A DNA stretch of 24,304 nt from a virus. The position numbers were made by a program, and so were the translations under genes. The notes under the pieces were generated by a model. It worked only from the letters and a program-made list of their open reading frames with translations. It was not told the origin of the DNA and did not search any database. Position 1 is the stretch's first letter; each line of letters begins with the position of its first letter. Below, piece by piece: positions 5,275-24,304 of the stretch. The stretch is taken from the IMG/VR virus record IMGVR_UViG_3300029911_001830. The stretch is one strand, 5' to 3'.

Positions 5275-8200
5275 ATGACCAAACGGCGTTTCATCTCCCT
5301 GCTGCCCGGCTGCAACCAAACCGCCGACCTGACCGCCTTCTTCGGCGCCACGGTCGATGCCTTATTCCAGCCAGGAATTTCCGACAGTATCAATGGTTAC
5401 ATCGGTCACCAAATCAGCGGGGCCGACCCGACCACCGATTTCTATCTCGCCGAACCGGATCAGACTCGCGCGTTCTACCAGTTGGAACCCGGCATGGTGA
5501 GCCTCAATTCCACCAGCAATACGATTCGCAATGCCCTGACCTATCCGGATTTCATTTCTTATCTCGATGACACCGGGGCGATCGTCAGCAATCAGCAGCG
5601 GCTGTTCGACACCGCATTGTATAGCTGGGCGCCGCCCATCAATATCGACGCCTGGATGAACTATCGGCAATACTATTGGTTTGGCGATGGCGCCGAGGAT
5701 ATGCCGGTCCTGGCGATTAACGTTCCAATCACGTATTATACCGGCGACGGGGTTACCACGCTGTTCGCCCTGCCACCATCCATGACCTCGATCACCCTCG
5801 CGCAGGAAACCCCGACCGGTTATGTTGCGGGTGAAACAATGCCAACCACCCTCAGTCCGGATGGCAGCAGTCTGATCTTCGCAGATGCGCCTGCTCTTGG
5901 CACAGTGGTCATGGTGACGCGCATTGCCGACTTTATCGGCACCGTGACCAACATGACGAGCATCGATGTGACCGGACTCACCTCAAATGATACTACCCCC
6001 TCACGCGCGCCCAGTCCGCCGGTCACCCAGCTTAGCTCGGGGATGCTGCTGCGTATCTACGATACCTTGCATCTGACCGAAGGCTGGGGTGGTCCGGCCT
6101 GGGATACCACGCCCTGGGACGCAGCGGCCTTCGATCAGTATATCATCGATGGCGTCGGTCAGAGCATCCGGTTCACCCCGTATGGCACGCTGATCCGGGG
6201 TCTCGCGGCACAATACGTCACCATTGATCGCTCATCGCAGCAAACCAACGCATGGTCGAGCCGCAATCTGTGGGTGCATCGCGCCACCTTCCTGTGGGCC
6301 GGAGTGGATTTCGTCAGCCGTCAAGCCTTGCGCCCAATCATCGAATTCGTCCGCGATCTGGTGTTATGGCAATGCTCTGCCTCACTCTACAAACCGACCC
6401 CTCAGCAAGGCAGCACCCTCACCTTCGCGGGAACCTTGCCGGTCGCCACCACCGTCAAGGGGTTTGATGTCGAGATCGGTGTCACGAGCGAAACGTTAAC
6501 CACGCCGATTCCGGTTGTTACAGTCATCACCACAGCATCCACTGCGGTCACCCTGGCGACACCCTTGCCTGCGCTACTGGGACCGTTCGCGGCAGGCACT
6601 TCCATGACCTTCCAGCAGATTTGGTCGGAGGATGTGGCGCCATTGTTCATGCTGTATGATCTCAGCACCACCCCCGCGCCCTTGAACGATCCGGTTCGTT
6701 ATCCCAACAGCACGTTTTATGGCGATCACATTTTCGGCTACGCGCTGGGCACCGGGGCGGCCGATCCGGTCATTTTGCAACCCTTGGTGTTTGACAGCAA
6801 TGGTATCATTGTCTACGACAATGCGATCGCCACGACACAATATCTGGCCGGATCGACGCCGATCATCGGGCTTTATCGTTACGCCACGCATAGTAGCGCG
6901 GGTGATCCGCAATATTACTCGCCGTGGCACGATGCGGGCATCACCAGCCAGTCGATCGCGATCAATGGCTTTTGGGATATTCCGGTCAATTTGCAAGCCA
7001 ATCCCTTGGCGCAAGAGGTTAGCCGGGTGTCGAACAGCGATGTCCAGCAGCATTTTGCCGACTTGATCAGCCAGCAAAGCAATTTCAGCGGCACGGCCAG
7101 TGCCAGCAACAACTATCGCGACAGTCCGCGCGATCTGTCTCTCGGCACCCAGGTTCTCCAGCATCGGGCGACCCTGCTCAAGGCCATGCTGCTGGCGTCG
7201 TCCAGCCAATTCGATCTGACCCTGGCACTGCGCTACGCCGATCAGGAATATAACAGATTCCGTAACAAATTCGCCCGCAAGCTGGTTGATCTATGCAATC
7301 GTGGTGTGCTGCGAGTGGATATCGATCCTGCCAGTACTTGGGTGGCGACGACCCTGGCGGCCTTGAAGATTGGCCATACCAATGCGATGCCGTTTTGGCT
7401 CAGCACGATGGCGGGCGGCCAATGGTTCATTCCGCCCACGGCCTCGGCCCTGGGTATCCAACCGGCTGTGGTGCCTGCGCTGCTGGTCGATGCCTTGTAT
7501 AATCCGCCGATTACTTTCATCCAGGGGCATGACGGCAGTCGCACACCCGCCAATAATGACTGGCGCGATGCGATCATCCTGGCGCTGGAACAACTAATCT
7601 ACACCAATCTCGATCCTGCGTTGCAGACCGAAGCGCGGCCGGTGTTTGACATTCAGCAATGGTGTGGCGGGCATTTCTACGCCCCCGCGAACGGCTATAG
7701 CCACGCCGAGGTGAGCAGCCTGCTGGCGCCATTCTTCGAAATCTGGGCGCAGAACAACGGGCTGGATTATCGCAATGCGCTGGGCTACGATCCGAGCAAT
7801 CCTTTCACCTGGAACTATCGCGGCAGCCTCGACCTCTTTGGCTTGCCGATGGCTGGAAGCTGGCGCGCGGTCTATCACGATTATTACGGCACCGATGCGC
7901 CACATCTGCGTCCCTGGGAAATGCTGGGCTTTCAAACTCAGCCGTCCTGGTGGGTGACGCAGTATGGCGCGCCGCCTTACACCCCCAGCAATCGGGTCTG
8001 GATCGACGCCACGAACGGCTATATCGCGGGTGGCGTGCGCGCGGGCTATGATGCGGTCTATTCTCGGCCCGGTCTGCTGGCGGTCTTGCCGGTCGATGCG
8101 ACGGGCCATCTGCGCGATCCCACCCAAATCGGTCTGGTCACGGTCACTTCGGGGCTCGTCGCGCTCTCCAGCCAGCCCTGGCAAGCAGGCGATTTCGGTC

Positions 8201-11200
8201 CGGTCGAGATGCTTTGGCGGACCACCCCGTCGTTTCAATATGCCCTGGCCTGTGTCAGTTTTTTGATGAAGCCCGCCCGCTTCACCGATACCTGCTGGAC
8301 GACCCTCACGCGCGGCCTGATCGCTGATCAATGGGTCGATCTGAACACTTTGTTGCGTTCCACTGACTCAACCAATCTGCTGCATGGCGAGAGCGATGCG
8401 GCAGGCCAACCTGTGATGGTCACTGGCGTCTCGCAATGGCTCGCCGACTATCTGGTTTCGCAGGGCGGCACGAGCAGTCAATTGGGCGATGCGGTGCGCG
8501 GCTTGGATGTGCGCCTGCTGCATCAGATGGCGGGGTTCGTATCGAGCAACACGGTGCAGGCGGTGTGCGATAGTTTCGGCTTGCTACCTGCCGAGAATGT
8601 GCAGACAATTCTCTATACATCGCCACCCAACGATACCGAGGTCTATAGCGGCGTGATCGTCGAGTGGACGGGCGCCGGGTGGCGGGTGATTGGCTATGAC
8701 GGGCGCACCCCTTCCTTCACCATCATCCCGCCTGATCCGGCCTCGGTCAAAGGCGTGATCAGTCTCGCCAGCGTCGCGGAACCGAAGATCAGCCCCTGGC
8801 AAGCCAGCACGTGGTATGCGCTGAATACTTACTGCAATTCGCAGGGTTCGGTGTATCAGTGCCAACGCTCGCACACCAGCGGCCCGATCTTCGAACTGAG
8901 TTTCTGGACCCCGCGTCCCGATCTCAGTCCATTCGCGATCCCGGCGCCACGCATCGTCACCTATGCGACCGGTTTCAAGGCGCTCCAACAAGTCGCCTAT
9001 GGCACGATATTCAACACCTATCAGGCGGTCGGCGATTTTCTGCTCGGCTATGAACGTTACTTGGTATCACGGGGGTGGATTTTCAGCGGCACCGATCCGC
9101 AATCCGGCGCGATCCTGAACTGGTCGATGGCGGCATTGGAATTCCTGTCCTGGACGCAGGTCAAATGGCAGCCCGGCAACTTCATCGCCCTGTCGCCCGG
9201 ACAGCGGCAAATCCAATTCAGCACGCTCACCGGGACGATCAATAACGTGGAGGACAACAGCACGGGGTTCTTCGGGCTGTGCGATCGCGTCGGCGCCCCG
9301 ATCAGCCAAAACAACGTCCTGCTCAGCCGTCTGGATGGCGATCTGACCATCACCGCGCTGAATGCCGATATCTTCCTGGCCCGGCTCTATCTCAGCACCA
9401 TCGAACATTTGTTAGTTTTTGATAACGTAACCATCTTTGACGATGCCATCTATCTGCCGTTGTTCAATCTCCGCCAGCCGCGTCTGCAATTGATCTGCAA
9501 TCGGGCGCAGCAATGGAGCGGACGGCTGGACGCACCCGGCTTCGTCATCACCGGCAACACCTTGGCCTCTAGCTTCGAGAAAGCCGCCAATGATGTGCGC
9601 TACATGTTTGACATCGAACTGGCAGATGTGGCCGACCTGCGGGACTACGCACGTCACGTGATCGGCTATGCCGAGCGTAATTACCTGGATAACCTCCTGT
9701 TGGCCGAAGTCGAGCAGTTTGAGTTCTATCAAGGAATGATCCAGCAGAAGGGTGCCCCCGGCGTGTTCGAGAAACTGATGCGCAGCACCCGCGCATCCGG
9801 CAACAGCACGCTATCGTTCCTCGAAGAATGGGGCTTTCAGGTCGGCCAATACGGGGCTCCGGCCGATGGGTTCGTGACGTTCCAACTGGCGCAGACCGAT
9901 ACCCGTGACGATCCGCAGTTTGTCAGTTTTCAGCCGCTCGCCAATGCGCCGCTGAACTGGATCATGCTCGCGCCGGGCGATCCGCGCTGGTATGACGTGC
10001 CGCCGAACCCGAGCCAATTTTTCACCATGCAGAGCGGCTTCGTCCCTGCCGCCTTGCCGATTGCCGGGCCGGTGCGGCTAACCGATGTCGCCAATACAGT
10101 GTTCGCCTGGGCCGACGTGCCGACGGTGTTCAGCCAAGAATTGCAGGCAGGTACTGCTACCTTGCCCGCCGGAGAACGCCTCTGGGTGTATGAACGAGCC
10201 GATCTAACCTTTACGGTGCTGGAAAGCTTTAACACAGCGGCGCTCCCAAATGCGCTGCTCAGCGTGCTCGCACCCGTCATCGGCAGCACCGATCGAACCG
10301 CGACCCAGACCACGCGACTGACCCTCAGCCAACCACTCAATCTGCAACAAAGTGACATTGGTAGCTACATCGTCATTGATGCGCCCAGTCTGTCCTATCC
10401 GGACCTGCATGGTGTCGCAACCTTGATCGCCATCAACTTCGCCAATAATACCATCGATATCGATTCGGTTAGCACACAGGGCTACGTCTATCTGCCCACC
10501 GACACCGCGCCTATGGTGCGCATTCTGCGCGAAATGCGGTTTCCTGATCTGGCGACGCTGATGGTCGCGGGCTACGATTGGATGATCGGCGACCTCGCCT
10601 GGATCGACGGTTCAGCCACGATGCCCTGGACGGTGCAGCAATGGGATGGCGGCGAATGGTCTCTCGCCCGCCAGCAGCCCCTGCGCAATAATCCGACGAC
10701 GATCAGCGAGACGCTGATCTATGCAGCCGGGACGCAGATCACGGGTATGCTCATGAGCAGCAACACGCCAGTGGTGAACGCCATCGACGTGATCGATCCG
10801 GTTGCTGGCTTAATTGCAGGCCGCGCCCGCAAGGAACTCGATTATCTCACCCCGTTCGATCCGGCCCGCTATAACGCCGGAGCGACATCTGCTGCGCTCA
10901 ACCCGTGGGGGCCGAATGAACGCGGCCGGGTGTGGTGGAATATCGCCACCGTCAAGTTTATCGATCCCTCCACCGATGTCTTAGGCGCAAGTAACGATCG
11001 CGATGTGGTCGAGTTGCACTATCGCATCCAGCAATGGACCCGTGTGGCGCCACTTAGCAGCGTCGATGTGTATGAATGGATCGAAAGCCTCGTCGATCCG
11101 ACGACCTATATCGCCCAGGCCATAACCGATTCGTCCTTGGGACGGGTGTATCTCACGGACGCGCCCTCCTGGGTCGAGCGGGTGGTGTATGATCCGACCC

Positions 11201-19283: not shown

Positions 19284-19311
19284 TTGACCTGCGCCGGACC
19301 ATTGGTATAAC
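19284..19311 (+). promoter_or_regulatory. sigma70-like promoter candidate (TTGACC, 16 nt, TATAAC) followed by an AT-rich leader-like stretch
   Basis: TTGACC at 19284-19289 and TATAAC at 19306-19311. The AT-rich CTCTTTGATATTAAAACCTGT (19319-19339) follows and leads directly into the first degenerate repeat unit at 19341. It would transcribe the mini-array in the orientation in which the units end ...GGCTACGAAAAC. Confidence 0.3.
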
Positions 19312-19340
19312 AGCGCCTGCTCTTTGATATTAAAACCTGT

Positions 19341-19800
19341 ATGGCTATGAAAAGCAGCAGGCGCAGCCTTGGGATAATGAATCAGTCATCCTCGATCGGG
19401 ATGGCTACGAAAAGACGCATTCGCATTTAGGTGGCTACGAAAACGCCGACAGCTACAAAAATCTGCTGAGCCGTCACCCCGTTGGTATCCGGGATGCAGT
19501 CATTCCTGTTCGAATGGCTACGAAAACTGGCTTGCGTAGCGGCTACACGGGCTGATGGGATGCAGCCACTCCTGTGGCTACGAAAAGGAAGGGGAGTTGC
19601 CTACGACCATTCCGGGAAGTATTTGCACGGCATGATAGCAAAGGCGCTATTACAGTCATCCATCTTGTTTGGCTGGCTACGGAAACGGAAGACCTCAAAT
19701 GGGGGACGATCGGATGCAGCCATCCGATGGATGGCTACTAAAATCATGAGAGTCCGCGCACGACGAAGCTCCAGTCACCCGGTATGGTGGATGGCTACGA
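19341..19800 (+). repeat. degenerate CRISPR-like mini-array in plus orientation, about 10 decayed units
   Basis: Units such as GGATGCAGTCATTCCTGTTCGAATGGCTACGAAAAC, GATGCAGCCACTCCTGTGGCTACGAAAAG, GATGCAGCCATCCGATGGATGGCTACTAAAAT and CAGTCACCCGGTATGGTGGATGGCTACGACAAAC match the reverse complement of the downstream CRISPR repeat (GGTGCAGTCACCCTATCGTTGGGTGGCTACGAAAAC). Spacing is irregular at 30-70 nt. Confidence 0.55.
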
Positions 19801-19841
19801 CAAACTTTAACATCTTGTGCCGCCAAAGACTAAATACTTGC

Positions 19842-20096
19842 ATGACCCTGCGAGAACTTTTGCAAATCACCGAGCGAAAACATTCATTGCACTATCACGC
19901 GCGACTCAATCCGGAGAACATGTGGTTCGACATCGTGGACATGAACGATCACGTGGTGGCGATCGATGTGTCGCCCAATCCCAAGCGGGCGCGAGAGATT
20001 GCGGCGACCTTCTATCCAGGGCAGATCATCGAGAGCGCCCGCCAGTCCCAAAGGAATCGTAGTTCTCGTAGCCATCAAGAGGATGACTGTTCATAG
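19842..20096 (+). CDS. small hypothetical protein (84 aa) between the two inverted repeat blocks
   Basis: ATG at 19842 gives MTLRELLQITERKHSLHYHARLNPENMWFDIVDMNDHVVAIDVSPNPKRAREIAATFYPGQIIESARQSQ... This is the only protein-like part of the 204-aa track ORF 19482..20096, whose 5' part is a read-through of the repeats. No clear RBS. The 3' end runs into a repeat-like TCTCGTAGCC...GGATGACTG element. Confidence 0.3.
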   Translation: MTLRELLQITERKHSLHYHARLNPENMWFDIVDMNDHVVAIDVSPNPKRAREIAATFYPGQIIESARQSQRNRSSRSHQEDDCS

Positions 20097-20125
20097 CCGG
20101 GGATCGACGCCTGGGGACGTCCGCT

Positions 20126-20340
20126 CTTTTCGTAGCCTTTTCGTAGCCGCCACAATGTGTGACTGGCGTTGACGCCAAGGCCAAGGCCGACCTAGAGCTT
20201 TTACCGTAGCCTTTTCGTAGCCGCCATCCTCAGCATAACCTTTTCGTAGCCGCCTCTGACTGACTGAATCGTAGCTATTTGTCCCTCAGCATAACCTTTT
20301 CGTAGCCATTTCGGGTGACACCTACTGTTTTCGTCGCCCT
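20126..20340. repeat. degenerate CRISPR-like repeat block in the opposite orientation to 19341-19800
   Basis: Repeated TTTTCGTAGCC(G/A)CC units include a tandem pair CTTTTCGTAGCCTTTTCGTAGCC (20125-20147) and two identical 24-mers CCTCAGCATAACCTTTTCGTAGCC at 20228-20251 and 20284-20307. It ends with GGGTGACACC...GTTTTCGTCGCCC. Confidence 0.5.
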
Positions 20341-20516
20341 TCGTGATCGTCCTGTGATCGATTCTCGTGACCGTGCGCAGCCTCGGTTGCGATCATGGCC
20401 TGCAACTCGTGTCAGATCGCACACCAGAGTGTATGCTGGCGATCGGGTTGGGTCAACCGTTTGGTTTGATCGAACTTCATGTTAAATAATGAAAACACTG
20501 AGGATGCCAACAAACG

Positions 20517-21275
20517 ATGAGTATTCGCGCCTGGATGCGGCTGGTGGAGGCGATCATGTCCCCCGCAGCCCCACCGCCCGTCACCGAGACGGCCGCCTTC
20601 CAGCAGTGGTTTGCGGGCAGTAAGGTGGTCGATAAGGCGGGGAAGCCGCTCCGCTGCTATCACGGCACCCAATCGGACTTTCATACGTTTTCCAATGAGG
20701 ATGCGCCGGGGCGGGGCGGTCTGTTGGCGTTCTTTTCGGTGAAGCCGCAATTTGCCAGTTCCTATGCCTCGGACGAGCGCTCGCCTGAGGTGCGGGCGGG
20801 CGCCCAGGTGATGCCGGTCTATCTGCGCATCGTCAATCCATTCGATTACCGCAAAGATTATCACATGGCCGGGAGTTTCTATGATGAGACCGGCGGCATC
20901 CAGGATCGTTTTGAGAGCAACCGCATCCTCATGGGCCTCGGTTGGAAGATCGATAACATTGACGATGTCTCGACGCCGCTGCTGACGGAAAAGCAGTTTA
21001 CCAGGGCACTCCGCAAGGGCAGTTGGGATGCCTTGGAGGCGCCGGACTTCGTGGAGTATATCCATGATGCTGGTTATGACGGGATCGTGTTGATGGAAAA
21101 CCGCAGCCTCAACTTCGCCATCTTCGAGGCTAATCAGGTTAAGAGCGCGATTGGCAATCGGGGGACCTTCGATCCCGAGTCCGATCACATTGGTGAATCC
21201 GCACCGGCGCGCGATACCGGGTGGCGGGCGTTTCACCGTATTTCACGGCTCGGCCGCAAACACCCTGAGGTCTAG
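20517..21275 (+). CDS. hypothetical protein, possibly ADP-ribosyltransferase-fold (YHGT motif)
   Basis: 252 aa, GAGGA 13 nt upstream, ordinary composition. LRCYHGTQSDFHTF (YHGT at 20658-20669) resembles the H-G-S/T NAD-binding motif of H-Y-E-class ARTs (PARP, Tpt1/KptA). Possible Tyr and Glu follow in FASSYA and NFAIFEANQV. The opposite-strand ORF 20412..21236 is Arg-rich and antisense-like. Confidence 0.6.
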   Translation: MSIRAWMRLVEAIMSPAAPPPVTETAAFQQWFAGSKVVDKAGKPLRCYHGTQSDFHTFSNEDAPGRGGLLAFFSVKPQFASSYASDERSPEVRAGAQVMPVYLRIVNPFDYRKDYHMAGSFYDETGGIQDRFESNRILMGLGWKIDNIDDVSTPLLTEKQFTRALRKGSWDALEAPDFVEYIHDAGYDGIVLMENRSLNFAIFEANQVKSAIGNRGTFDPESDHIGESAPARDTGWRAFHRISRLGRKHPEV

Positions 21276-21526
21276 TATTTTAGGGAAAACGTGCCATTGC
21301 CGTGATCGATTAGCTGGTCGGTGCGATGCAAGGAGAACGTGCCGTCGCAATGATCCAGAAGCTGGATGTCGCCGGTTTCGAGGTAATACACCACCGAGTC
21401 GTGCGCCTGTTCGCGCGTGACGCCAGCAGGGATTTTATCGTAGTCGAGACAGCTTTCGATGATCGCATCGAGGCATTTGCGAGCGCCTTCGGGAAGTTCT
21501 TTGTACGGGACTGTAGGTTTTGTCAT
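21272..21526 (-). CDS. small hypothetical protein, convergent with the ART-like gene. Its start is uncertain (ATG 21526; alternatives ATG 21619, TTG 21655)
   Basis: Encodes MTKPTVPYKELPEGARKCLDAIIESCLDYDKIPAGVTREQAHDSVVYYLETGDIQLLDHCDGTFSLHRTDQLIDHGNGTFSLKY with an internal duplicated motif DH-x-(D/N)GTFSL. Its stop (CTA, 21272-21274) overlaps the plus-strand TAG (21273-21275) of the ART-like gene within CTAG. The opposite-strand ORF 21326..21751 looks non-coding. Confidence 0.45.
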   Translation of the reverse strand: MTKPTVPYKELPEGARKCLDAIIESCLDYDKIPAGVTREQAHDSVVYYLETGDIQLLDHCDGTFSLHRTDQLIDHGNGTFSLKY

Positions 21527-21582
21527 GCCGGTGTGGATAGCATTGCCCGACCCCTGGTGTCCAGATGGAGTATCTGTCTTGC

Positions 21583-21909
21583 TCAAGATAGTATCCGCAA
21601 TAACAGCAGGACGAACCATGTGATGCCCAAAGCTGATACGAACATGTTCAGCCAAAACGCCACCCGCATCAGCCAGTGGAATCTCTGGTTGAAACTGCGT
21701 GACGTCTCGATGATATCATGCATGAGTTCAATGCGATCGCGGATGGCGTGATCAAAGGCCATCAACACGATCAAGTGGTGCAGGTCTTGCAGCACGATCT
21801 CGATCGCAAGGGTCATGGCCAGAAACGGCGATGCGCCGCCTTGTTGCAGTTCGGCGAATAGCGCTGCAATCACGGGACGCACATCGGGTTCGGGCTGTTG
21901 CATCACCAT
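21583..21909 (-). CDS. small hypothetical protein with a hydrophobic C-terminal helix
   Basis: MVMQQPEPDVRPVIAALFAELQQGG...FWLNMFVSALGITWFVLLLLRILS. A strong GGAGGG RBS lies 9 nt upstream of the ATG (minus strand). It is the first gene of a two-gene minus-strand unit that reads toward the ART-like gene. Confidence 0.55.
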   Translation of the reverse strand: MVMQQPEPDVRPVIAALFAELQQGGASPFLAMTLAIEIVLQDLHHLIVLMAFDHAIRDRIELMHDIIETSRSFNQRFHWLMRVAFWLNMFVSALGITWFVLLLLRILS

Positions 21910-21995
21910 GGTCTACAACCCTCCAATACGAATTGGAAGCGTCGGATTTGCGCTTTTCGATCGCGTGGTTGTTGTTGGCTATATTTGCAGATGTC

Positions 21996-22029
21996 ACCTC
22001 AAGCGGCCTTGGCTGCGTCCGCTTGAGGT
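21996..22029. other. perfect inverted repeat (11-bp stem ACCTCAAGCGG/CCGCTTGAGGT, 12-nt loop)
   Basis: Read directly from the sequence. It lies between the start of the minus-strand gene at 21909 and the first degenerate repeat unit at 22046. A loosely T-rich tract (TGCGATCGTGCTGTTTGTTTT) follows on the plus strand. It is not a textbook intrinsic terminator on either strand. Confidence 0.25.
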
Positions 22030-22045
22030 TGCGATCGTGCTGTTT

Positions 22046-23768
22046 GTTTTCGTAGCCGCCCAAGGGTGACTGAAACCAGCTTGCCGGTCCTCTTGCTGTC
22101 GGTCTTGTGGTCGTATCCATTTCCATTTTCATAGCCATGCCAACGGGATGACTGCACTTCTGTGTAGTTACTCGTGAGTGACGATTCTGTTTTCGTAGCC
22201 ATCCCATGGCTCTTGAAAGGACGTCCGCAGTCGTGCCCTTGTCGTAGCCGCCGGATGGTAGGGTGAGTGAGCCGATGATGCCCGTCTGGCCGTGATGTAC
22301 GGGGTTGTCGTAGCCATCCTAGCCACCCAACGATAGGGTGACTGCGCCTCCTGCGCTCAGCCCTCGGATACATTTTTCGTAGCCACCCGAAGGGTGACTG
22401 AAACTGAGGCATTCGGGGTTCGCAAGGCTCACACGTTTTTCGTAGCCTTTTCGTAGCTTTTTGTAGCCTTCAATCCCCGCCCATTTCTGTATGTTGTCGT
22501 AGCCACTCTCTCTCATAGCCGACGAACGACATAGCGCGATCGTCGCTCTCATACAATGCATCAAATAAGCTCTCGCGCCGTGCACTCTCATTTTCGTAGC
22601 CACATGGCCGGGTGACTGAACCGCCATGCATTCGCCATGCAAGTTTTTCGTAGCCACCCAGGTATACCCCCAACGGGCGCCAGTTGAATTTTTCGTAGCC
22701 ACCGAAACATCGGGTGACTGGAACTCAGCGGCTAGCTCGCCGACCTGGGATTGATATTTTCGTAGCCACCCACTTTCCATAGCTACCCAAAAAAGGTGAC
22801 TTTAAACCCGCCCGCCACACAAGATTTTCGTAGCCACCCAAGAGTGACTGAACCCGAACCCAACTGGATCAGTGGTCTTTTAGTAGCCCACGCAAATTTT
22901 CGTAGCCGCCCGAATGCCGGACCGTACCCATGCCACCCTGTGTGTTGTTGTAGCGACCCACCAATCATCGATTTCCGTTTTCGTAGCCGTCCCGAGTGGG
23001 GTGACTGAATCTCGGAGCCACCAAGCCAGACGCAACATTCTTTTTGTAGCCGTCCGAGTGGCGGAGCGACTGAAGCCTTGGCCAGCATGTCGATCATCAG
23101 CTTCTGTTTTCTGTAGCCACTCGATGTAGACTGTCGAGGGCTGTCGGGCAAGTAGTTTTGTAACACCAAAGGTTGTAGGGTCTCCGAAACGCGTGTTTTC
23201 GTAGCCATCCAAAGGCGCTGTTCCACCTCAGGCATGGGTGTTTTCGTAGCCATCCAGCCATCCAAAGACAGGATGACTGAGCCAATCCGTCACATTTTTC
23301 GTAGCCCCTGCGAGGGCTGTCGGAGCGGTGTTTTCGTAGCCTCGAACGCAACAAGTCGTTGCCATTTCTTGTCGTAGCCGTCCAAAAGGCAGGATGACTG
23401 TGGGGGAGTGGTCTGCACGGCGAATTCAGCGATGTTTTCGTAGCCACCCAACGGCACGGCATGACCGAAGCTCCGATCGAAACTTTTTTCGTAGCCATAG
23501 GGTGACTGAATCGTCCCGAACTAAATCGGTTTTTGGAGCGGCCTACGCCGACGGCACGATCCGATGGCAGTTCTCGTAGCCTTTTTTCGTAGCTATAGGG
23601 TGACTGATCGTAGCGGCCGGGCAGCGACTCCAAAGTTTTCGTAGCCACCCAAGGCTGGGAAACCGGCTGAGCCCTTTTCTTTTTGTAGCCGCGTCCGGCG
23701 ACTGAGGCTGAATAAAAACTGCCGCTCCATCGCTGCACCAGCAGGTGTTGCGGCCTGCACAGGCTTTC
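22046..23768. repeat. extended zone of decayed CRISPR repeat units, many of a shorter variant GTTTTCGTAGCCACCCAAGGGTGACTGAAAC
   Basis: About 30 units beginning (G)TTTTCGTAGCC at irregular 45-100-nt spacing. Examples are 22046, 22374, 22590, 22690, 22825, 22976, 23488 and 23569, which end GGGTGACTGAA(A/C)C and lack the CGATA segment. Units at 22128 and 22303 are closer to the intact repeat. There are tandem partial copies at 22436-22468. A 13-mer CGAGGGCTGTCGG recurs in two different inter-repeat segments (about 23130 and 23306). Confidence 0.7.
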
Positions 23769-24304
23769 GTTTTCGTAGCCACCCAACGATAGGGTGACTG
23801 CACCCAGGATGATGGTGGCGTACTGGCCAAAGGTGTTTTCGTAGCCACCCAACGACGGGGTGACTGCACCGACCTGCTCTTGGCAGGTTATCGCAATTTT
23901 TCGTAGCCACCCAACGATAGGGTGACTGCACCCGCGCTCACCCGGATCGTCGATGGCTTTTTGTTTTCCGTAGCCACTTCCTCAATCCAGTTTTCGTAGC
24001 CACCCAACGATAGGGTGACTGCACCGAGATCGAGGTGAAGTGGTTGCCTGTCTGTTTTCGTAGCCACCCAACGATAGGGTGACTGCACCCAAAACCAATG
24101 CTGAGGATAATCCGTCCCAGTTTTCGTAGCCACCCAACGATAGGGTGACTGCACCCATCCTGTCCAGCGGCGCTTGAACGCGCCAGTTTTCGTAGCCACC
24201 CAACGATAGGAATACAACGCTCAGTTCGTCAGTTTTCGTAGCCACCCAACGATAGGGTGACTGCACCACCGGCACTCCAGGAGAACGAACAGTACTAGTT
24301 TTCG
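23769..24304. CRISPR. CRISPR array with 36-nt repeat GTTTTCGTAGCCACCCAACGATAGGGTGACTGCACC. It continues past the window end
   Basis: Repeats at 23769-23804, 23835-23870, 23897-23932 (begins TTTTTC), 23990-24025, 24054-24089, 24120-24155, 24186-24210 (truncated to 25 nt), 24232-24267 and 24298-24304 (cut by the window end). A degenerate copy lies at 23963-23989. Spacers are unique and 26-30 nt long. The reverse complement ends ...GGCTACGAAAAC, like typical repeat 3' handles. The conserved end is at high coordinates, so the leader is probably beyond 24304 and transcription probably runs on the minus strand. Confidence 0.9.

Follow-up and report, generated by a model that had tools for sequence, protein, structure and literature searches.

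We analyzed a 24,304-nucleotide (nt) stretch of viral DNA (IMG/VR record IMGVR_UViG_3300029911_001830; the whole stretch is called the window below), with a focus on a gene near its right end that encodes a protein of 252 amino acids (aa). An earlier note, made from the sequence alone, had likened this protein to an ADP-ribosyltransferase (ART) on account of a YHGT motif. The protein belongs to the ART-PolyVal family, and its gene contains the features listed here, where pLDDT is the predicted local distance difference test score and pI the isoelectric point.

20517-21275, plus strand: ART gene, 252 aa, ATG start and TAG stop (21273-21275); a stand-alone ART-PolyVal protein
20523-20558, plus strand: amphipathic helix at the N-terminus, residues 3-14 (IRAWMRLVEAIM), leading into a Pro-rich linker; pLDDT ~90
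20631-21170, plus strand: ART-PolyVal domain, residues 39-218 (Pfam domain limits), including the clade-specific helical insert
20661-20663, plus strand: codon of His49 (YHGT, strand 1), the predicted NAD-site histidine; H in 49 of 50 homologues, strand 46-51 of the model
20730-20735, plus strand: codons of Phe72-Phe73 (strand 2), strand 71-74 of the model; position 72 is the family "Y" position
21078-21080, plus strand: codon of Asp188 (GYDG, just before strand 5), the predicted catalytic acid; D in 50 of 50 homologues
21177-21272, plus strand: basic C-terminal tail, residues 221-252, pI 8.9, outside the Pfam domain; low confidence (pLDDT 54-62)

The protein matches Pfam family PF18760 (ART-PolyVal, "ART in polyvalent proteins"; Iyer et al. 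2017) over the complete profile (positions 1-140 of 140) with 85.6 bits, against a cutoff of 31.2, and an E value of 7.3e-24. All 82 of its 82 database homologues contain the same domain, and its two PHROG matches fall within polyvalent-protein profiles of 1664 and 2900 positions. The residues that are invariant among 50 aligned homologues (W31, F32, S35, P44, D188, and S210) are all kept, as are H49, G50, F73, Q207, and K209, which are at least 90% conserved. An N-terminal F..WF..SKVVD motif and a C-terminal Q.KSA.GN.GTFD motif are likewise shared with the family. Unlike most viral copies, which lie inside multidomain proteins of 600-4000 aa, this ART is a single-domain protein, and it further differs in a ~70-residue helical insert and in a Phe at the "Y" position. 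The insert (residues ~117-184) is common solely to the closest clade and is absent from minimal homologues of 170-190 aa.

The site of ART-PolyVal has been described as comprising a strand-1 H, a strand-2 Y, and a strand-5 D (PMC5512222); here, it reads H49, F72, and D188. The YHGT motif (Y48-H49-G50-T51) is present as the earlier note had seen and is the strand-1 motif of the NAD site. Column 72 of the alignment contains Y in 18 homologues, F in 16, W in 7, and H in 6, so that the change from Tyr to Phe lies within family variation, and column 73 is F in 45 of 50. Glu194 (codon 21096-21098) is an alternative catalytic acid, with an acidic residue in 27 of 50 homologues; it aligns with the "QDE" of AcrIF11Pae2 (D146/E147 in our residue count) solely in a nonsignificant hhalign match. 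The family, called N4-ART in a 2022 survey (PMC9503650), has been grouped with the Tox-ART-HYD2 clade of polymorphic toxins and with a class of toxin-antitoxin (TA) systems (PMC5512222).

An AlphaFold2 model of the protein (pLDDT 87.8, predicted template modeling score 0.79) has an ART-like strand order, with H49 in strand 46-51, F72/F73 in strand 71-74, D188 right before strand 189-194, and the insert modeled as helices at 117-184. When compared with the PDB using Foldseek, the model gave AcrIF11 as its top match (6kyf, E 3.3e-3, probability 1.0), with diphtheria toxin, RES toxin, tankyrase, and Tpt1 (rank 9) at the next ranks. The best matches to solved structures are almost all ART folds, and the structural neighbors include the TA toxins MbcT, ParT, and RES. 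Tankyrase and AcrIF11 have equal Z scores against the model, and PARP4 scores no higher than other PARPs. Among the predicted viral structures of BFVD, 60 match at E <= 1e-3, and many of these bear the name ART-PolyVal or polyvalent protein. A profile of the 252-aa protein searched against PDB sequences gave a weak Tpt1 match alone, local at the YHGT region (E 0.16). The predicted model thus presents an ART fold with an NAD cleft and, together with the full-length PF18760 match, bears out the proposal of an ART-like protein.

The kinship with H-Y-E enzymes that had been suggested (PARP, Tpt1, DarT) holds at the superfamily level but not at the family level. Diphtheria toxin and PARPs, the classical H-Y-E enzymes, have a Glu, whereas the invariant acid of this ART is Asp188 in GYDG, and Pfam gave no PARP or Diphtheria_C match, leaving no sequence-level H-Y-E membership. 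Pfam likewise gave no PTS_2-RNA match, the domain of Tpt1/KptA, and the window locus does not hold a DarT-family ART with an adjacent macrodomain gene (DarG).

We favor the start at 20517 over a 239-aa gene call because homologues have similar N-termini (MRRLISLVEAV in P0002, IRRWLSLIEATV in P0005, and MRFFQLVET in L066); P0002 likewise ends in a basic tail. An N-terminal helix ending in L-V-E-A occurs in perhaps a quarter of the stand-alone homologues (MRRLISLVEA, IRRWLSLIEA, MRFFQLVET, MRQFIDLVEG, and MRMRDLIDIVEG), which looks commoner than chance by eye, without a formal test. T4-type prohead proteases cleave after L/I-x-E, and T4 capsid-targeting peptides end likewise. The resemblance of the helix to such capsid-targeting or prohead-protease sites is a lead only. 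On the opposite strand, a 274-aa open reading frame (ORF; 20412-21236, minus strand) overlaps the ART gene and exceeds it in length; we consider it spurious, with GC contents at the three codon positions (GC1/2/3) of 0.70/0.45/0.59 versus ~0.6/0.4/0.7 for coding sequence.

Phage origin and surroundings of the gene

The window DNA recurs on many contigs from bog and peat metagenomes, one of them 259 kb long (ERZ27250025 k141_1547704), and public contig records, with contigs up to that length, indicate that the source is a huge myophage. Ten independent contigs of this phage show 0 mismatches in 19300-22100; their sole differences there are two 3-nt indels (21943-21945 and 21968-21970), both located between the 108-aa gene listed below (upstream of it) and the first repeat remnant. 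Pfam and PHROG scans identified a gp25-like baseplate protein in the window, and a 1128-aa baseplate wedge protein has an overwhelming PHROG match (phrog_10646). This wedge protein shares 40% identity with its counterparts in Agrobacterium phage Atu_ph07 and Sinorhizobium phage Phosso and 38% with the one in Escherichia phage 121Q, all jumbo myophages, and, judged by these identities, the phage is related to the Atu_ph07/121Q group. The baseplate genes, the jumbo-myophage homologues of the wedge protein, and the 259-kb contig lead us to assign the ART-PolyVal gene to a phage, which is the expected home for this domain. The features that surround the gene are the following.

70-21275, plus strand: long rightward arm with baseplate genes, a giant 3549-aa ORF, and the MVP-like gene; the ART gene is its last gene
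16757-19279: gene of an 840-aa MVP-like protein (MVP_shoulder, E 4.7e-18), ending 1.2 kb upstream of the ART gene
19343-20338, both orientations: 15 degenerate CRISPR-repeat-like units, 8 minus-oriented (19343-19802) and 7 plus-oriented (20064-20338)
19842-20096: an 84-aa ORF bracketed by these upstream repeat units
21272-21275, both strands: CTAG, the overlapping stop codons of two convergent genes, with two bases shared (21273-21274)
21272-21526, minus strand: gene of an 84-aa acidic protein, pI 4.9, ATG start; lineage-specific and the last gene of the leftward arm
21583-21909, minus strand: gene of a 108-aa orphan protein that has a transmembrane helix at its C-terminal end; same strand as the 84-aa gene and upstream of it
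22046-24267, listed as minus strand: 39 plus-oriented motif copies, degenerate and irregular to ~23700, with variable hairpin loops

The ART-PolyVal domain is present in at least 574 IMG/VR stretches, and we compared the window with 85 ART-PolyVal loci from other lineages. In tblastn searches, the 84-aa (minus-strand), 108-aa, and MVP-like proteins had copies at 0 of the 85 loci. Periodic repeats occur near the ART at one of them, as 75/147-nt tandem repeats with no CRISPR array; a CRISPR array beside an ART-PolyVal gene is found in this lineage alone. The closest homologues whose neighborhoods we inspected (P0002, 61%; P0004, 56%; P0005, 52%; and P0010, 47%) have downstream genes that are co-directional and unrelated. 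Of the 111 motif-bearing ORFs at the best 80 IMG/VR loci, 99 are longer than 600 aa, and the stand-alone form is thus the minority architecture. We conclude that the ART is a normal stand-alone family member and that neither the stop overlap nor the nearness of the MVP-like gene shows a conserved link. Family membership, fold, family-invariant residues, phage origin, and the lack of conserved partners are established here. PADLOC gave zero matches for the ART, both small proteins, the MVP-like protein, and the large ORFs.

Several other loci and genes deserve mention in their own right. Gp225 of Tunturiibacter phage Tunturi_5 (L099 4416-8204; 1262 aa) contains two ART-PolyVal domains, and its gene immediately precedes the portal gene; this classic polyvalent protein is annotated as "MutT/NUDIX hydrolase", with no mention of the ART domains. 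On another contig (L095 1734-9245; JGI 3300045449 Ga0492751_0000150), three separate ART-PolyVal genes (340, 589, and 414 aa) and an intervening DNA methylase gene share 7.5 kb. In L007 (1233-1733 and 8001-8729), the gene of the P0005 ART is followed directly by an N6/N4 DNA methyltransferase gene, and a NADAR-domain gene lies 6 kb away. In the window itself, the 3549-aa ORF (5275-15924) downstream of the baseplate wedge gene gave no match in either Pfam or PADLOC; from its position, it is presumably a giant fiber or baseplate-associated protein.

Proposed function and likely target

For this protein, we infer a catalytic activity, a target class, and a timing or packaging. Our proposal, to which we assign a probability of roughly 0.7, is that the 252-aa protein is an NAD+-dependent mono-ADP-ribosyltransferase with an H49/F72/D188 site, acting in host modification or counter-defense, and that the CTAG overlap marks no functional pair. 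An active enzyme is probable because every family-invariant residue is kept. Its substrate would be a macromolecule of the host, most probably a protein, whose ADP-ribosylation would serve to take over or disarm the cell. The enzyme would either be made during infection or be packaged in the virion and delivered with the DNA, a route taken by T4 Alt and predicted for polyvalent proteins. The clade-specific helical insert is a likely target-recognition module.

This proposal is in line with earlier work, in which ART-PolyVal proteins were predicted, by analogy to T4 Alt, to be injected with the DNA and to act on the host early (PMC5512222) and about 44% of phage ARTs were found in head-packaging, morphogenesis, or T4-Alt-like contexts (PMC9503650). 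The T4 alt gene adjoins baseplate genes, and the Alt protein is packaged (PMC5512222). T4 Alt, ModA, and ModB are phage ARTs that modify host proteins; the window ART, for its part, closes an arm that includes baseplate genes. The T4 enzymes are, however, R-S-E ARTs of a different clade (PMC5512222), and the window ART has no Alt-like Pfam match.

Several observations weigh against the proposed function. Because the stand-alone form is the minority architecture, the virion-packaging logic of polyvalent proteins may not transfer to it, and the stand-alone homologue of Dickeya phage JA13 lies amid replication genes rather than structural ones. Position 72 is a Phe instead of the Tyr for which the site is named, although Phe is about as common there as Tyr. 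A promoter and terminator scan of 19200-22300 gave nothing above shuffled expectation that would delimit the transcription unit. Finally, the literature that we searched contained no experimental study of any ART-PolyVal member, the family name appearing there as a list entry.

The target could instead be DNA or RNA, modified in a DarT-type, Tpt1-type, or ModB-type (RNAylation-like) reaction, which we regard as unlikely. Such a target would suit the basic C-terminal tail (pI 8.9) and the weak local Tpt1 match at the YHGT region (E 0.16; Foldseek rank 9), and the NADAR gene 6 kb from the P0005 homologue points in the same direction. NADAR proteins reverse base ADP-ribosylation by removing ADP-ribose from bases. 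However, the ART has no PTS_2-RNA or DarT match in Pfam, its DarT scores are weak, and no macro or NADAR gene is on record in the neighborhood of this phage.

CRISPR-like repeats, convergent genes, and the MVP-like gene

The motif TTTCGTAGCC, with at most 1 mismatch, occurs in 54 copies in the window versus 0.9 expected, all between 19343 and 24243, and zero copies fall within the three-gene cassette of the ART, 84-aa (minus-strand), and 108-aa genes. From 23769, the copies settle into a regular CRISPR array, in which a 36-nt repeat recurs every 62-66 nt and which continues beyond the end of the window. The array repeat is GTTTTCGTAGCCACCCAACGATAGGGTGACTGCACC on the plus strand, also written GGTGCAGTCACCCTATCGTTGGGTGGCTACGAAAAC; read on the minus strand, the repeat unit is a 7-bp hairpin followed by UACGAAAAC. 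The full array is found in L001 (13248-14136), with 14 identical or near-identical repeats, one degenerate copy, and unique spacers. It degenerates toward the ART side, which would be its trailer end, and the cassette sits in an old, partly inverted, decayed array. No cas genes are on record in the fetched flanks, and an Rfam scan of 19000-24304 matched no family.

A different virus from the same bog sample series (L106 5414-5623 and L107 3286-4333; IMG/VR 3300045771_000034 and 3300045773_000040) contains the repeat CACGCACAGCCCTCGTTTGTAGGGCTACGAAAAC with a 59-66 nt period. Compared with the window repeat, its hairpin stem differs and its 3' tail, CUACGAAAAC, is the same; on sequence comparison, the two phage arrays seem to combine covariation in the stem with conservation of the tail. 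Neither the ART nor anything else in the window has a homologue in that virus. We also scanned genomes for a host CRISPR array that shares the repeat end of the window array. One pattern had 0 genome matches; a looser one had six, none with the window repeat, and these are mostly tandem repeats, some probably coding (GGC-TAC-GAA-AAC = Gly-Tyr-Glu-Asn).

The earlier note had read the position of the gene inside a CRISPR-derived region as a sign of a defense or counter-defense cassette. Repeats do lie on both sides of the gene, but the context is unique to this phage. The cassette reading does not survive the comparison across the family, in which the domain is spread over at least 574 loci and the small partners, the MVP-like gene, and the CRISPR array are unconserved. 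Because the repeat arrangement is specific to this phage, it offers no basis for inferring the function of the ART family.

A more specific version of this idea would make the ART an AcrIF11-type anti-CRISPR that acts on a host Cas subunit, with the surrounding repeats belonging to the same locus, possibly as Racr-like RNA decoys. In addition to AcrIF11 being the top Foldseek match, the key residues of AcrIF11Pae1, H-F-H-D (PMC12421852), resemble H49-F72-D188. The ART gene is embedded among the 54 CRISPR-repeat-like units, and repeat-like RNA anti-CRISPRs cluster with acr genes in viruses (PMC10651486). We nevertheless find this reading distinctly unlikely. The likeness to AcrIF11 lies at the level of the general ART fold, as tankyrase reaches an equal Z score, and the hhalign comparison with AcrIF11Pae2 (a query identical to the 8DWQ sequence), a protein without any Pfam match, gave E 0.13 and a probability of 0.45%. 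AcrIF11 (6KYF, 8DWQ) is a mono-ADP-ribosyltransferase that modifies Csy1; the window ART is 100 residues longer, has no significant sequence relation to it, and shows no sign of a Cas target. Furthermore, 0 of the 85 other loci have a CRISPR array (one has the 75/147-nt tandem repeats), the regular part of the repeats is an ordinary array with unique spacers rather than solitary units, and the genome scans gave no host array with this repeat.

At its 3' end, the ART gene converges with the leftward arm. The 252-aa plus-strand ORF with its TAG at 21273-21275 and the minus-strand TAG, the complement of 21272-21274, can both be read in the sequence as previously described; the two stops share two bases (21273-21274) rather than three, and the CTAG palindrome spans four. 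The minus-strand gene had been drawn to 21655, but this 127-aa version is the mechanical longest ORF from a TTG. The real gene is most likely the 84-aa one with an ATG start at 21272-21526, as suggested by public gene calls on some contigs, by the alignment start of the homologue P0087, and by the GC3 signal, which is lost in the extension. The GC3 of the 43-codon extension is 0.47, versus 0.64 in the 84-aa part and 0.71-0.73 in large genes, and the GC1/2/3 values of the 84-aa gene are coding-like.

Both small proteins are specific to this lineage. An exhaustive HMMER search of 1.8 billion representatives found P0087 as the sole homologue of the 84-aa protein, at 40% identity over residues 3-59 (E 6e-6), and a word-indexed search returned self matches only. 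P0087 aligns from residue 2-3, starting MKPSIPFTELPEGA versus MTKPTVPYKELPEGA in the 84-aa protein; on its 1.3-kb contig, P0087 is accompanied by proteins of 134, 92, and 106 aa, and no ART is recorded there. The AlphaFold2 model of the 84-aa protein is weak (pLDDT 60.7) and consists of two helices and hairpins. At its C-terminus (residues 55-84), the protein has a duplicated L[LI]DH.[DN]GTFSL motif (LLDHCDGTFSL / LIDHGNGTFSL). Three repeat-rich proteins of 530-879 aa were considered as further homologues and rejected, as only the DGTFS hairpin motif matched, which we judged a motif or compositional match; they are probably surface proteins, and the N-terminus of P0085 is hydrophobic and signal-like. 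The 108-aa protein gave a self match only among 5.8e9 proteins. Its gene has GGAGGG 8 nt before the ATG and GC1/2/3 of 0.59/0.32/0.69, and the transmembrane helix scores 2.22 on the Kyte-Doolittle scale at residues 89-107. Along the leftward arm, the CRISPR array comes first and is followed by the gene of the 108-aa membrane protein and finally by that of the 84-aa acidic protein, whose end meets the ART arm at CTAG.

Any Y-T-A-R tetranucleotide stops both strands. In a census based on crude ORF calling at 87 phage loci, a stop-to-stop distance of -4 was the most frequent among 125 convergent neighbor pairs, with 6 cases versus at most 3 for any other distance within ±40 nt; the window's own pair is missing from this census, the caller having chosen the antisense 274-aa ORF over the ART gene. 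In public gene calls for this phage and relatives of its ART, an overlap of exactly 4 nt is seen in about 4 of 10 convergent pairs, including TTAG in L007, CTAA in L097, and a second CTAG in this phage ~10 kb away (L002 15571-15574). Rather than being unusual, as had been thought, such tight convergence is the modal spacing in related phage DNA, and CTAG is the meeting point of two convergent arms, not a functional pair.

A toxin/immunity or co-regulated pair had nonetheless been suggested, in which the 84-aa acidic protein, perhaps together with the 108-aa membrane protein, would restrain a toxic ART and expression of the genes would be coupled through their overlapping 3' ends. The grouping of the family with Tox-ART-HYD2 polymorphic toxins and a TA class (PMC5512222) is compatible with this idea, as are the TA toxins MbcT, ParT, and RES among the structural neighbors and the small, acidic partner (pI 4.9), and no terminator was predicted between the genes, so their transcripts could be mutually antisense. 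The comparison of loci makes it very unlikely: the partners occur at 0 of the 85 other ART loci, the four inspected homologues have differing co-directional neighbors, and no ART is on record beside P0087, the one homologue of the 84-aa protein. In type II TA systems, the two genes normally form a co-directional operon, whereas the ART and 84-aa genes are convergent; their 4-nt overlap is the commonest convergent spacing and recurs in this phage, and PADLOC found no match.

Homologues of the MVP-like protein, at 37% identity over 96% of its length, are encoded by the 735-kb and 462-kb uncultured huge phages LR756501/LR756503 and LR756500; on the basis of these alignments, a vault-like protein is conserved among huge phages. 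The MVP-like gene aside, no gene is common to the window and those phages within ±12 kb. The proximity that had led to a comparison with vault PARP is real, as the MVP-like gene ends at 19279, 1.2 kb from the ART gene; the co-occurrence that it might have implied was found at 0 of 85 loci. The notion that the ART is a counterpart of vault PARP, acting on or carried in a particle of the MVP-like protein, is effectively refuted by this lack of co-occurrence, with no ART within 12 kb of the homologues in LR756501 and LR756500, no LR7565xx among the 16 records matched by ART tblastn on the phage collection, PARP4 scoring no better than other PARPs, and repeat units and another ORF standing between the two genes.

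Meaning for the ART-PolyVal family

The annotation reached here is correct but routine: a Pfam-defined phage ART of an already-known family in a huge-phage genome. Its nearest solved structural neighbor is an anti-CRISPR ART, which suggests a concrete target class. If the anti-CRISPR reading were true, the ART-PolyVal domains, found on at least hundreds of phage contigs, would represent a large pool of ADP-ribosylating enzymes that disable host defense. As a compact 252-aa stand-alone copy with an intact predicted site, the protein should be easier to express and assay than the polyvalent proteins of 2000-4000 aa.

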